Below, in pieces: positions 28,527 through 54,711 of a DNA stretch of 64,000 bases; within the stretch, counting starts at the first letter, position 1; every line of letters begins with the position of its first letter. Under the pieces are notes generated by a model. The model was not told where the DNA came from. It did no database searches and worked only from the letters and a program-made list of their open reading frames with translations. Both the position numbers and the translations under genes were made by a program. Source of the DNA: a virus. Location of the stretch: positions 64,001 to 128,000 of the IMG/VR virus record IMGVR_UViG_3300030329_003696; one strand, written 5' to 3'.

Positions 28527-28724
28527 TTAATTATCTTCTTCTAGGGACTCGCGTATAAGCTCGATCAGATCGTTCAACTCTTTGGGTGTTACTTCAATAC
28601 CTTGTTCGGCCATACTCTGTCGTATCATGGATGGGTTCTGTCGGTATTCGTCTACTGCATTTTGAAGTCTTTGGTGATTGTTACTAACAAACTCTAACCA
28701 AGTCTTTCTTATCCGTTCATCCAT
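28527..28724 (-). CDS. hypothetical protein
   Basis: ORF. Confidence 0.55.
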   Translation of the reverse strand: MDERIRKTWLEFVSNNHQRLQNAVDEYRQNPSMIRQSMAEQGIEVTPKELNDLIELIRESLEEDN

Positions 28725-29197
28725 TTGTCAGCCCCTTCTGGTAGGATACACTTTACTCCAAAAAAATGTTCCAACTGTTGGATCATCTTGTCTCGATATT
28801 CATCAAGCATGAAACTTGACTTCATTTGGTTAGCGTCAAATGATGCTAAACCGCAGTTCTCTATGTCGCTTGTTCCACCTTTACTCAGCGGTACTATGTG
28901 ATCTAACGAATACTGCTTTGAGTCCATCAGGTCTATCTTTTCTCCTGATAGGTAACAGTATGGATTTGCTTCCAGTTTATCTCTTAACTCTTTATTGGTA
29001 AACTTTTTCACAATCTTATCTCCAAATTCTTTTCTTTCTGCTTTTGACTGAGTTCTAGCGAAGTTACAGTGTTTTCTATGAATTACTCTTGCGATTGTTA
29101 GTTTATGATGCTTGGTGTCTGTCATTGACTTTCTATTAAAAGTTTTTGGCTTCTCGTACATAAATCTACTAACTTTTTTCATCAATACTTTATTCAT
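28709..29197 (-). CDS. HNH endonuclease
   Basis: CYLSG...LDHIVPLSKGG...NCG...ANQMK. Confidence 0.85.
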   Translation of the reverse strand: MNKVLMKKVSRFMYEKPKTFNRKSMTDTKHHKLTIARVIHRKHCNFARTQSKAERKEFGDKIVKKFTNKELRDKLEANPYCYLSGEKIDLMDSKQYSLDHIVPLSKGGTSDIENCGLASFDANQMKSSFMLDEYRDKMIQQLEHFFGVKCILPEGADKWMNG

Positions 29198-29208: not shown

Positions 29209-30120
29209 TTAGTGTAGTGCGTACATGGACTTAGCGTTCTTGAGATGTGAGGCACAGGCACGAATCGCTGCGTCCTTAGACTTGAGTTCGATGTCCCAGT
29301 CGTAGTCATCGCTACATGGAAAATCTACGGGCATGTCTGCGTGACTGCGTGGATTGGTCTTGTCAGGATGTGACTCACTGTAATGAAACAGTGGTTTGCA
29401 AGGCCAAGTCTCTGCACACTCTAGGTAAGTATTCTTGGCTGACGGATTGCACTTGTCGTGCAGGTTGTCGTATGTGATAGGTAAGCTAAAATACTTGAGC
29501 AGGTTATCTACATTCCAGCAACCTTTGTCTTCGTTCTCTAAGACTAAACGAGAAGTTACGCTTTGATCGCACTGGTTTAGGTTAGACATGAAGCGAGCAG
29601 CGATGTCAGCGAGATCGCCCTTAGTACAGTTGACATGGATGTTGATAGGGTTGTAGTAGCTACGCTCACAGCCTAGCTGATCCATGACCCAGCCATGATG
29701 GTTGAGTTCTAGGATCGTCTTATCTACTGACCCTTGATTCTCGCTTGCAAGCACGTTAAACTGGTCAGGATGCGTAGATAACCGCACGCCCCAGAAGTTC
29801 TTGTTTTCCCATGCGGTATCGTTGAGAGTTTCCATGATAGCTTCGTACTGAGGTACGTCTGAGATGTCGTAACCGAACTCAGGATGTGTTAGCACAGGGA
29901 ACAGATTGCTTGAAATGCGATAGCCCCAGCGGTTTTGCCAGCAGTGCAGGATAGCAAGTCTAGTGACTTTGACATTATTGAGCCAGCGTGAGCCTAGCTC
30001 GTTGAGTGCGTGAGAGACACTGTGCTGACTGCACAGGTCATTGTAACGCTTCCATGTCATGGTCTGGAAGGAGTGGCCTTGTTCTTTGAGTTCGTTACTG
30101 ATGCAACATAGATTGTACAT
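29209..30120 (-). CDS. uvsE: UV-damage endonuclease UvsE
   Basis: YRISSNLFP, RLSTHPDQFNVLAS, LVLENED, FHYSE, HAD, ELKSKD. Confidence 0.92.
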   Translation of the reverse strand: MYNLCCISNELKEQGHSFQTMTWKRYNDLCSQHSVSHALNELGSRWLNNVKVTRLAILHCWQNRWGYRISSNLFPVLTHPEFGYDISDVPQYEAIMETLNDTAWENKNFWGVRLSTHPDQFNVLASENQGSVDKTILELNHHGWVMDQLGCERSYYNPINIHVNCTKGDLADIAARFMSNLNQCDQSVTSRLVLENEDKGCWNVDNLLKYFSLPITYDNLHDKCNPSAKNTYLECAETWPCKPLFHYSESHPDKTNPRSHADMPVDFPCSDDYDWDIELKSKDAAIRACASHLKNAKSMYALH

Positions 30121-30210: not shown

Positions 30211-30498
30211 TTGCGTACCGACAGCGTTTATACCTACGAAGAACTATGAAAGCCAGTAGGTATATGGTAGTGTTTATAGGCAGTATCTTACAAGCTAATG
30301 GAAATTTTTTGCTAAAACCGAAGTTATCTTCGTAGGTCTAGGTTGCTCGCCAGCATTGCCTAGATTTAATTTTTCGATACCTCTGAGTGGTCGGACACTC
30401 AACTGCAACCTATACTTCTCAATGGGTCAGGAACGCAAGACTGCACCCAGTTACGTCTTTATACAAATCTATGAGAAGCGATAATACTGAACTACCAT
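30211..30498 (-). ncRNA. unassigned ~290-nt multi-pseudoknot RNA, copy 1
   Basis: ORF-free; shares invariant blocks and about 11 covarying helices with 52939-53230; lies 3' of tRNA-Leu. Confidence 0.8.
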
Positions 30499-30534
30499 TA
30501 TTATCTAATCATTATATTTAATCATTATATTTAA

Positions 30535-30619
30535 TCTCGATGGAGGGGATCGAACCCTCACTCCCAATAAGGGAACCGGATTTTAAGTCCGATGCGTCTG
30601 CCTATTCCGCCACATCGAG
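30535..30619 (-). tRNA. tRNA-Leu(TAA)
   Basis: CTCGATG/CATCGAG acceptor, CTTAAAA loop, long variable arm, GGTTCGATCC. Confidence 0.93.
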
Positions 30620-30814
30620 TTAGTCTTTTCTGAAGAACTTTTTAAATGTGTTCCAGAGAAAACTTTTTATCACGCTTTTATGGACGATCCTTCCCCCTTC
30701 TTCTTTGAGTCCAAAGTGTTCCAAAGAGCAGTCTTTACAATACCAAAGATGACATATCCTACAGCGGTAGGACTGGTTAATTTCAATCTCTTTGTCGCAA
30801 CTTTCACATTTCAT
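30620..30814 (-). CDS. small Zn-finger protein
   Basis: CxxC x3 + H. Confidence 0.6.
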   Translation of the reverse strand: MKCESCDKEIEINQSYRCRICHLWYCKDCSLEHFGLKEEGGRIVHKSVIKSFLWNTFKKFFRKD

Positions 30815-30817
30815 AAG

Positions 30818-30889
30818 TAGCTCGACGAGGAATCGAACCTCGAACTAGGGTTTAGAAGACCCTTGTTATATCCGTTTAACTATCGAGCC
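30818..30889 (-). tRNA. tRNA-Arg(TCT)
   Basis: AGGGT-CTTCTAA-ACCCT anticodon arm; GGTTCGATTCC. Confidence 0.93.
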
Positions 30890-30894
30890 AGAAG

Positions 30895-30967
30895 TCCGGC
30901 AGGGTGGAATCGAACCACCGACTCCCGCTTTATAAGAACGACGCTCTAACCCCTGAGCTACTGCCGG
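30895..30967 (-). tRNA. tRNA-Ile(TAT)
   Basis: CCGGCAG/CTGCCGG-A acceptor, loop CTTATAA. Confidence 0.88.
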
Positions 30968-31106
30968 TTCACGGAGGTTGTCGCCCTGATTATTCTCAGC
31001 CGTTGCACTTTTAAGCAACCGAACACTTAGTGAGAACAGCGGTGTGTCCTGTATTATTATATTCAATCTATCGTCATTTGTCAATGGGTTCTTTAGATAA
31101 TTTCAT

Positions 31107-31384
31107 AAAAAAAGCCAGCTTTGGTAACAAGGTGCTGGCAAACCCCGTGACCTACGAATAGGTCAGTCGGCCACCTAAGCGGCCATTGCGTAATTCTCTA
31201 CGCCGTTTAAAGTTGTGATAGATTTTTAGCGTAGCCCTTCTATCAACTACGACATGCAGTCATTAACTACGCAACCAGTCGATACCATTACGCCCCCATG
31301 AGTTGGCAAGTGGAGGCGGGGAGAATCGAACTCCCGTCCTGCATTGGTTCACTAATAACGTCTACATGCTTATGCCCGAAGGCA
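31107..31384 (-). ncRNA. ssrA: circularly permuted (two-piece) tmRNA, tag (A)GVENYAMAA
   Basis: Acceptor piece (..GACGGGAGTTCGATTCTCCCCGCCTCCAC, ends 31310) precedes coding piece (GGGGGCGTAATGGTATCGAC.., starts 31297); G3.U70; tag ORF 31204-31175. Confidence 0.9.
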
Positions 31385-31385
31385 G

Positions 31386-31458
31386 TACCCCATAGGAGAA
31401 TTGAACTCCTGTTTTCGGCGTGAAAAGCCGATGTCCTAGTCCACTAGACGAATGGGGC
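31386..31458 (-). tRNA. tRNA-Glu(TTC)
   Basis: TCGGC-TTTTCAC-GCCGA anticodon arm; GTTCAATTC. Confidence 0.93.
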
Positions 31459-51797: not shown

Positions 51798-52051
51798 AGT
51801 TAACCTTTCGTTGTTGTTTGTTATGCTTTAAGTATATCATAAAGATCGGCACTTGTCAATAGTAAACTGAAATAATTCTGAAAAAAAACAGAAAAAATCT
51901 GATCCGGGCCCCCCCAGCTTATGTGGTGGGTGTTTTATCTTCGATGTCAATCTACTTTTCAATAAGAAAAAAGCCCTAGGTGGTTCAGTCACAATTCGGA
52001 GCACTCTCTAGGGTTGTCTTACCTAAACCACACCATTAAAGTAAATAGGTA

Positions 52052-52918
52052 TTAGTCCGTAGAATCGACTTGTGCCCCATAGATACGCTTCCAGTCTTGA
52101 TCTTCCCTAACAGAGAGGTTGTAGCTCCACGCTGCTTCTAATAAAGGACAATCGACGCCCTGTTCTGCAAAAAGAGTAATCATACCATTTAAATCTTTTG
52201 GAAAACACTTGCCCCCAAACCCCAATTGACCGTCAGGTCCCGGTACATTCCAGTGTGACCCTCCCAATCTAGAGTCTGTTTGGTTCGCTGCCCCTATAAA
52301 TTTATTGTAATCAATACCTAAAGATTCACTAAGTTGATACATATGATTCGCAAAGGTCACCCTAACCGAAAGATAACTGTTGATTGTATACTTTATTAGC
52401 TCTGCCTCTGTGTTTGATACAAATATACATTCACACCCCACCCACAATGACTCATGATATCTTTGGAATATGCCCCTTAAGGACTCTGAGTCGCCCTCTG
52501 GAAGCCCTAAAACATGATACTTGGCATTGCGTAGGTCTTCGTAAGCATTTCGCTCTGTGAGGAACTCAGGGTTTGTTACAATCACAATATTACTAAATTC
52601 TTTTTTGAGTCGCTCTGAAGTTCCCGGTGACATAGTTGATTTTATTAAAACGATGGGCTTGTCTACCCTATTTTCTGACAAATCGCTGATCAATCCTAAA
52701 CTTTGCTCTAATATTCCCGTATGACACTTACCATTTTTATCCATAGGCGTCGGAACTGCCACATAAATTAACTCTGAGCGTGTTACAACGCGATTATAAC
52801 CCTCTGAAATGTCGCCGTCTCTTGCATCAAACGCTTCTATTGAATGATGAGAGTTTTCGATGAGGAACTTTTCCATAGAACCACCAACAAAACCTCTACC
52901 AATAATACCGATTCTCAT
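52052..52918 (-). CDS. UDP-glucose/GDP-mannose dehydrogenase family protein
   Basis: GIIGRGFVG, VPTP, IKST, NPEFL, GFGGKCFPKD. Confidence 0.9.
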   Translation of the reverse strand: MRIGIIGRGFVGGSMEKFLIENSHHSIEAFDARDGDISEGYNRVVTRSELIYVAVPTPMDKNGKCHTGILEQSLGLISDLSENRVDKPIVLIKSTMSPGTSERLKKEFSNIVIVTNPEFLTERNAYEDLRNAKYHVLGLPEGDSESLRGIFQRYHESLWVGCECIFVSNTEAELIKYTINSYLSVRVTFANHMYQLSESLGIDYNKFIGAANQTDSRLGGSHWNVPGPDGQLGFGGKCFPKDLNGMITLFAEQGVDCPLLEAAWSYNLSVREDQDWKRIYGAQVDSTD

Positions 52919-52938: not shown

Positions 52939-53230
52939 TTACATACCAAGACCATTTATACCTGTAAAGATATTACAAGCACTTTAGTTGAGATAGGAAG
53001 CAGTTAGGTCTTCAACACTAATTTCTTTACACTCACTCAATAAATTTGCCTTGAGGCCTTTACAGGTCTAGGTTGGTTGGTCACACAGAGCCTAGATTTC
53101 AATTTTGCCTAACCTTGGAGTCCTTGGAAACTCGCCGGTAACTTCCTAATTCAGCTGGACTTAGGTGAGGCTACAGCCCAATTATTCACTTTATACAAAT
53201 ATTTGCTGAATCTGATCACTTTTCAACCAT
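52939..53230 (-). ncRNA. unassigned ~290-nt multi-pseudoknot RNA, copy 2
   Basis: homologous to 30211-30498; promoter TTGCTA-17-TAGAAT at 53270-53242. Confidence 0.8.
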
Positions 53231-53338
53231 TGATCTACTATATTCTAGCTCTTTTTACAAGTTTTAGCAAAACGTTTTTTGGAATTTTGCCCTCTTCTGT
53301 GTATAATAGGATGGAGAGACAGTAACAAGCACTAAGAT

Positions 53339-54195: not shown

Positions 54196-54711
54196 ATGAA
54201 ATTACCCAAAGGAATGACTGAACAACAGGTTATAGATCAAATAAATATTGTCTGTAATAGAATATCACCTAGATATACCTTTTATGGATATACAGTTGAT
54301 GACATAAAACAGGAATCTTTCATTATTTGTATGGAAGCCCTAAACAGATATGATGGAATTCGCCCTTTGGAAAACTTCCTGAGTGTAAATCTATCTAATC
54401 GACTTAAAAATTTCGTGAGAGACAATCACTTTTTAGGTTCTGAGAACACAGAGAGACAAAAAGTTTACCAACCGGCTCAGTTGGAATACGAGGACTACAT
54501 AGTAGACGAAGAAAATAAACTTTCTATATCATACGATCATATACAAAAGGAAGAAATGGTTGATGCTATTAATAAATACCTACCAGCCAACATGAGAATG
54601 GATTATCTCAAGATGATTAATGATGTTTATATTACGAAACAACGAAGAGAAGAGATCACAAATATAATTATAGATATTTTACAGGAACACGGTTACCATG
54701 AAGAAGGGTAG
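54196..54711 (+). CDS. sigma-factor-like protein (region 2)
   Basis: DDIKQESFIICMEALNRYD...LENFLSVNLSNRLKNF. Confidence 0.65.
   Translation: MKLPKGMTEQQVIDQINIVCNRISPRYTFYGYTVDDIKQESFIICMEALNRYDGIRPLENFLSVNLSNRLKNFVRDNHFLGSENTERQKVYQPAQLEYEDYIVDEENKLSISYDHIQKEEMVDAINKYLPANMRMDYLKMINDVYITKQRREEITNIIIDILQEHGYHEEG

Follow-up and report, generated by a model that had tools for sequence, protein, structure and literature searches.

The minus-strand element that precedes the UDP-glucose dehydrogenase gene of this phage is almost certainly a stand-alone gene for a structured non-coding RNA, and the RNA very probably acts in trans. As far as can be judged from sequence, the RNA belongs to a real class that is apparently undescribed among structured phage non-coding RNAs. 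The element lies in a window of 64,000 nt (the whole stretch of DNA analysed), which is part of a complete phage record of 166,833 bp; the terminase of this phage matches Bacillus phages at 24%, and none of its cultured relatives is close. In an nhmmer search of the 167-kb genome, the element (copy 2, type B) matched a second locus (copy 1, type A) with an E-value of 2.3e-8, while the next match had an E-value of 0.86, and a covariance model with both copies in its training set found exactly two loci, scoring 250 and 240 bits. The two copies are ~52% identical, and BLASTN of one against the other is marginal (E 0.015). The preliminary description was thus right that copy 2 is a second copy of the same RNA, but its boundaries needed correction. 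The RNA starts at ~53235 rather than at 53230, with the 5' arm of the first hairpin and 7 nt past the -10 box, and conservation stops at ~52945, 26 nt and not about 20 nt ahead of the ATG (52918) of the dehydrogenase gene, to which it is indeed adjacent. An ORF search found no ORF of at least 60 aa overlapping copy 2. The features of the locus are collected in Table 1.

Table 1. Features of the RNA locus and of its fold (window coordinates).
Feature	Position	Strand	Pairing or basis
RNA copy 2 (type B), ~290 nt	52945..53235	-	nhmmer, covariation, covariance model
RNA copy 1 (type A)	30217..30505	-	starts ~30 nt after tRNA-Leu; nhmmer, covariance model
Sigma70-type promoter of copy 2, TTGCTA-17-TAGAAT	53242..53270	-	-10 box in all 65 type-B homologs and a TTG at -35 in 42 of them
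Divergent promoter for plus-strand genes, TTGGAA-17-TATAAT	53279..53307	+	TTCCAA upstream of most type-B homologs
P1 hairpin	53214..53235	-	53235-53231 with 53218-53214; 5/5 pairs two-sided, 99.5% paired
PK1	52986..53228	-	P1 loop 53228-53223 with 52991-52986; 4/6 pairs two-sided, 96.9% paired
P2	53148..53212	-	53212-53205 with 53155-53148; encloses H-type pseudoknot PK2 + P3; per-sequence helix search
PK2	within 53148..53212	-	53189-53186 with 53168-53165
P3	within 53148..53212	-	53180-53175 with 53161-53156
P4	52995..53147	-	53147-53141 with 53001-52995; 6/7 pairs two-sided
P5 hairpin	53118..53133	-	loop CAAG 53126-53123
P6	within 52995..53147	-	53113-53108 with 53008-53003; 5/6 pairs two-sided
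P7	53068..53095	-	53095-53091 with 53072-53068
P8, the long helix of the preliminary description	52961..53066	-	53066-53058 with 52969-52961; 99.6% paired, 3 pairs two-sided
Variable P9 hairpin and A/U-rich linker	53013..53057	-	least conserved part
PK3	P7 apical ACCA 53081-53078 with 3' tail UGGU 52954-52951	-	covariation
PK4	P5 loop CAAG 53126-53123 with 3' tail CUUG 52950-52947	-	100% paired
UDP-glucose dehydrogenase gene	52052..52918	-	passenger in variable slot after the RNA
Conserved downstream DNA element, bounding the slot, outside the RNA	51975..52030	-	sequence conservation

Taken alone, the hexamers upstream of copy 2 are a 9/12 match, and the region contains 6 such matches against 3.9 ± 2.0 expected. 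The comparison among homologs confirmed the promoter that had been proposed at 53270-53242: the -10 box lies 9-15 nt upstream of an invariant AUGG in 65/65 type-B homologs, and this fixed spacing places the predicted +1 at P1, the first helix. No terminator was found downstream of copy 2 in the window, so that the 3' end is probably formed by trimming. The earlier contrast between a tRNA trailer (copy 1) and a promoter-proximal leader (copy 2) was overstated, since many type-A copies have a promoter of their own; 8 of the 10 that abut a tRNA lack an own -10 box, and behind 24 of 36 type-A copies lies a separate promoter. In the gap from tRNA-Leu to copy 1 we noticed a 13-bp tandem duplication with a TATAAT (30534-30509, minus strand), absent from the nearest homolog L135, which may serve as the promoter of copy 1.

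The folding energy of the single copies is ordinary (z -0.33 and -1.26), and therefore the case for structure rests on covariation. Mutual information on a plain MAFFT alignment recovered the helices without any folding model. In 75 sequences, 97.3% of the 3811 cells are paired and 36 of 52 pairs show two-sided changes, while control partners slid by 1-3 columns pair in 31-47% only. These data support the earlier proposal that selection preserves the structure of both copies. The excess of G-U over A-C in the helices (172 versus 20), together with GNRA and UUCG loops (27 and 8 of 87 P9 hairpins, respectively), indicates an RNA encoded on the minus strand. We give almost no credence to a DNA-level element or a chance similarity, with which the ordinary folding energy would agree, because the two-sided covariation extends to crossing helices and is accompanied by the one-strand G-U excess, the RNA tetraloops and the constant promoter spacing.

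From 5' to 3', the RNA consists of P1, whose loop opens with the invariant AUGG; P2 around the H-type knot of PK2 and P3; the 5' strand of P4; P5; the 5' strand of P6; an A-rich linker of variable length; P7; the 5' strand of P8; the variable P9 with its linker; the 3' strands of P6 and P4; the PK1 strand; the 3' strand of P8; a UAUAAA linker; and the tail, which pairs first with the apical loop of P7 (PK3) and then with the loop of P5 (PK4). Five helices cross others, P8 crossing P4 and P6, and in the predicted fold both ends are buried, the 5' loop on the strand after P4 and the 3' tail through two loops. P2, P3 and PK2 shift in register, so their support is weaker than that of the other helices. 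PK4 alternates between A-U (39) and G-C (36) at one pair and between G-C (46) and C-G (29) at another, and PK3 occurs naturally as ACCA/UGGU, GGCG/CGC, GGCA/UGC and ACCG/CGGU. The strands of PK2, PK3 and PK4 pair better with their own partners than with permuted ones, also within a subtype, where the margins of PK3 and PK4 are small. Outside the helices the invariant unpaired bases are the AUGG, two UA-N-AAA linkers and an AAG. Covariation reads the same for pairs within and between molecules; the linker lengths would let all knots form in one molecule. A second TACCT strand, a possible partner of AGGTA in a switch, is conserved almost without covariation and overlaps P8 in some homologs. A T-box-like UGG:CCA pairing was rejected, as these bases covary inside PK1.

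The fold also bears on the suggestion that the variable interior of the long ACCT...AGGT helix, P8, specifies different partners. This was not supported: the interval is largely occupied by the 3' strands of P6, P4 and PK1, with a majority-base frequency of 0.76 in these structural strands and 0.47 in the variable part, and when the variable segments were searched for complementarity, antisense matches in the phage genome were no better than those of shuffles. The copies differ instead in the codes by which loops and tail pair, and these codes covary within either copy.

Short-pattern searches found the RNA in at least 117 metagenomic, 41 viral and 2 genome records, a few of which are chance matches. 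Removal of duplicates left 101 distinct full-length homologs of 259-362 nt from viral and metagenomic contigs, with a median identity of 59%, carried by large, mostly marine phages. As most were found by a 3' pattern, the conservation of the tail is inflated, and copies obtained by other routes vary more there. Independently of any RNA pattern, 80 loci were retrieved through the neighbouring sigma-like protein, and 45 of them have the RNA in the same place; nearly all of the closer loci do, while about two dozen more distant ones with enough flank lack it. Two minimal variants of 259 nt (L206:2025-2283 and L211:2274-2532) lack P9 and have type-A codes at the type-B locus. At the other extreme, six homologs (L002, L016, L034, L077, L164 and L227) have hairpins of up to ~60 nt inserted in the P3 loop, which thus appears to tolerate insertions.

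Outside this group, BLASTN found no match in cultured phages or plasmids, and the covariance model, which matches G000, G001 and G004, found none in the RaK2 or T4 genomes. Under strict filters, its sole match in 150 Planctomycetota and 150 same-family genomes was an island copy (see below). Rfam 15, searched at gathering and loose E-values with both copies and six homologous loci, gave chance matches only. We found no description of the RNA in the literature searched, which was covered in part and mostly without subscription papers. The candidate RNAs of one survey are at most 151 nt long (PMC10690425), and a fragment of the present RNA may be among these short candidates.

Type-A copies lie in the tRNA/tmRNA region, 14 of them 2-47 nt after tRNA-Leu or tRNA-Arg; in the present genome this region comprises four tRNAs and a permuted tmRNA (30535-31458; ARAGORN, Rfam). 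Five phage records have one type-A and one type-B copy, 20-28 kb apart, and one near-complete genome has type A only. A tree of the homologs requires 2 changes of locus label, versus 17 for shuffled labels, although its bootstrap is not fully settled and intermediates between the types exist (L206, L211, L253, L257 and L261). The two copies thus appear to be old paralogs at fixed loci. Behind copy 1 follow a gene for a UvdE UV-damage endonuclease (29209-30120, minus strand) and an HNH gene (28709-29197, minus strand) with their own promoter; pyrimidine-dimer glycosylase genes take their place behind type A in other phages.

In each of the five records with two copies, the PK1 code of one paralog pairs imperfectly with that of the other, and the same is true of PK4 in four of them, a mismatch that would fit orthogonal assembly or simple divergence. 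One reading of it is an RNA-only homo-oligomer, a cage or ring like those of ROOL and GOLLD, in which PK1, PK3 or PK4 would be intermolecular and the differing codes would keep the paralogs unmixed. ROOL and GOLLD, both of which occur near tRNA islands in phages, have kissing loops that were initially detected by covariation and turned out to be intermolecular (PMC12286853), and the present RNA, too, has a variable unstructured linker. Yet it is half the size of those RNAs, no palindromic loops were seen, its linkers allow closure within one molecule, the PK3 codes of the paralogs can cross-pair in G004 and, in part, in G177, and plain divergence also yields mismatched codes; we consider an oligomer distinctly unlikely.

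Sixty-three of the 65 type-B copies occupy a single syntenic slot, back-to-back with a sigma-like gene block. In the window, the plus-strand genes here begin with a small ORF, after which come genes for a 234-aa protein, a sigma-region-2-like protein, a protein of 270 aa and a GDP-mannose dehydratase. The preliminary description had correctly seen divergent plus-strand genes here but took them for a morphogenesis region, whereas the terminase comes only 5 kb further. Among the divergent products, a 171-aa protein (54196-54711, plus strand), kept in these phages, gives a weak match to sigma-70 region 2. On the other side, the slot between the RNA and the conserved downstream DNA element is a cassette hot spot. 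It holds UDP-glucose dehydrogenase, GNAT, KdsB-like or methyltransferase-like ORFs or HNH endonucleases, the latter by several independent insertions, and it is empty in about half of the type-B loci, as counted with a gene filter that missed a few real genes.

This context supports the earlier preference for a trans-acting RNA over a gene-specific cis-regulator. A survey of gene contexts had been proposed there, with homologs confined to one gene class as the sign of a cis-regulator; instead, the downstream proteins fall into 17 unrelated clusters, or there is no gene. With a passenger gene behind the RNA that changes from locus to locus (sugar enzymes or HNH endonucleases, and often none at all), a riboswitch is unlikely. 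More broadly, a cis-acting element might be a riboswitch, a put-like antiterminator or a 5' stabiliser of the downstream transcript, and it would suit the transcription of type B from the +1 without a terminator as well as the 20 of 59 type-B copies with a gene within 50 nt, several of which are sugar-nucleotide enzymes. However, for about half of the type-B copies the next 130 nt contain no gene, the genes that do follow are unrelated, the ribosome-binding site is not part of the conserved fold, a separate promoter comes after most type-A copies and strong promoters lie just downstream in the window, all of which makes such a role very unlikely.

The element that bounds the slot is present in a single copy and has two blocks at fixed spacing, TTAGGTAAGACA and, after ~20 nt, TTG.GT.TGAACCACC, followed by a T-run. 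It was rejected as a second domain of the RNA, since it shows no covariation and also occurs in sister phages without the RNA at that place. Located where the early region begins, it is a candidate for a site of protein binding or packaging, or for an origin. The beginning of this region is marked by a row of near-consensus sigma70 promoters (51859-51400, minus strand) with one short ORF behind each.

A third context was found outside the phages. On a Pirellulaceae chromosome contig from a metagenome-assembled genome (MAG), the RNA is part of a small island that encodes tyrosine recombinases and sits at a tRNA-Arg, with HypD and an AMP-ligase as flanking genes, and relatives of this island occur in metagenomes. 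In the island (L262:11000-19600, G003 C13), as also in L142, L097 and L149, the RNA precedes an 85-aa ORF and a GNAT-like gene, and an extra P1-like hairpin lies ahead of it. L149 looks chimeric between the L161 and L097 types, and type I restriction-modification-like genes flank L142. The island RNAs belong to two lineages of type A (AU p 0.027, for a group picked after an earlier tree and with L161 on a long branch). No protein is common to the islands and this phage genome, which argues against a cis-encoded partner protein shared by both carriers, and the capture by islands suggests a benefit of the RNA that is independent of phage proteins. The phage host is probably a Planctomycete, given the RNA in the Pirellulaceae MAG and a Tat protein, which we take to be DUF1501-like, on a related contig.

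Mobility within the phage, also raised in the preliminary description, was not borne out: nearly all type-B copies share one slot, the tree keeps the two loci apart, and the genome encodes no reverse transcriptase (RT) or TnpB. A nuclease-associated RNA of a selfish or guide type, whether HEARO- or omega-RNA-like or an antisense guide in the variable interior, could draw on the island copies from two phage lineages and on the 10 of 59 type-B loci at which an HNH gene directly follows (endonuclease-VII-like in 8, HNH_3-type in 2). We regard it as highly improbable, as this genome has no gene of the endonuclease-VII-like HNH family, which also occurs elsewhere in these phages, and as the loci are fixed and the antisense matches at chance level.

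Our best, still tentative, explanation is a stand-alone trans-acting RNA that would bind a host factor as a decoy or scaffold. The RNA would be transcribed from a host sigma70-type promoter with the +1 at the first base of P1, and would fold, mostly within one molecule, into a compact body in which five helices cross others. The buried ends, whose pairs are themselves supported by covariation, could protect it from nucleases; the 3' end would probably be produced by trimming as far as the knot, with the slot gene simply co-transcribed. The stable, end-protected RNA would be made early in infection and, by elimination, would bind a host-encoded protein or ribonucleoprotein, for which the translation, RNA-decay or anti-phage machinery is a candidate. 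The two old paralogs would then provide dosage or two timings rather than two guide sequences. We favour host-factor binding because no shared phage protein accompanies the RNA and because it lies among tRNA and tmRNA genes. Against it, a search under strict filters of 150 Planctomycetota and 150 same-family genomes yielded no host homolog for the RNA to mimic.

The invariant junction bases would fit a catalytic core equally well. Size and knot density of the RNA are those of large catalytic RNAs, and a new ribozyme class could process transcripts of the tRNA region or its own, or act on host RNA; the type-A copies that abut a tRNA and lack a -10 box would need 5' processing. We nevertheless consider a ribozyme unlikely. 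First, no Rfam 15 ribozyme matches, and the helix order is unlike group I, RNase P and HDV-like folds. Second, type B begins at the +1, which leaves no upstream cis substrate. Third, tRNA trailers can be released by host RNases.

Large, heavily knotted RNAs are rare in bacteria and phages, and those with an established function (RNase P, self-splicing introns and tmRNA) do central biochemistry; to our knowledge, the function of ROOL, GOLLD, OLE and raiA is still open. The present RNA adds a distinct, small and well-aligned class, with ~100 natural variants of 259-362 nt and a minimal form of 259 nt. A bolder interpretation, which we hold to be rather unlikely, is a new large ribozyme class or an RNA-only machine whose kissing-loop codes are interchangeable, with two orthogonal paralogs and repeated capture by integrative islands of the host, as a contested tool in the conflict between phages, satellites and hosts. 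With these variants, three loop codes that are swapped in nature and a pair of paralogs in a genome, the choice between monomer and oligomer, as well as catalysis, becomes directly testable in vitro without the uncultured phage.

Among known RNAs, the present one appears to resemble GOLLD and ROOL in setting and ornateness without being a member of either. It is likewise phage-encoded, often near tRNA genes (type A), and has several pseudoknots and loop-loop pairs and a poorly conserved internal linker, but it has no Rfam match to either, its helices follow another order, genomes carry two paralogs of it at fixed loci, and its length is ~300 nt versus >800 for many GOLLD RNAs. The raiA motif RNA and ARRPOF are pseudoknotted RNAs of 200-260 nt. 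They share with it the size class, a compact multi-pseudoknot fold and stand-alone transcription (here predicted), but Rfam gives no match, topology and hosts differ, and the present RNA is borne by phages and islands and did not turn up as a core gene of a chromosome in the genomes searched. The T4 species 1 and 2 RNAs (rnaC, rnaD) are also stable phage RNAs beside tRNA genes, but measure about 120-140 nt, and our model has no match in T4. With HEARO and the IscB omega-RNA it shares an HNH gene directly downstream at a minority of loci, but there is no Rfam match, and the nuclease is free-standing, endonuclease-VII-like and missing at most loci as well as in this genome. Theta (HDV-like) ribozymes occur at the 3' ends of phage tRNAs, and type A often begins a few bases after a tRNA. 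The present RNA, however, is four to five times longer and begins with a local 5' hairpin; lacking the 5' double-nested pseudoknot, it is excluded from the HDV-like and theta ribozymes by topology.

Further known classes were also rejected. Group I and group II introns do not fit an RNA that starts at the +1 in an intergenic gap and has no Rfam match, nor does RNase P RNA, as P1 is a local hairpin instead of joining the 5' and 3' ends, again without an Rfam match. A retron, DRT or DGR RNA was dismissed because the complete genome has no PF00078 reverse transcriptase (the control matched), and a TnpB reRNA because it has no TnpB. It is not the tmRNA either, which ARAGORN and Rfam place elsewhere (31084-31400, minus strand). 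This tmRNA is circularly permuted and carries the tag GVENYAMAA; the tag in relatives is ADESLALAA.
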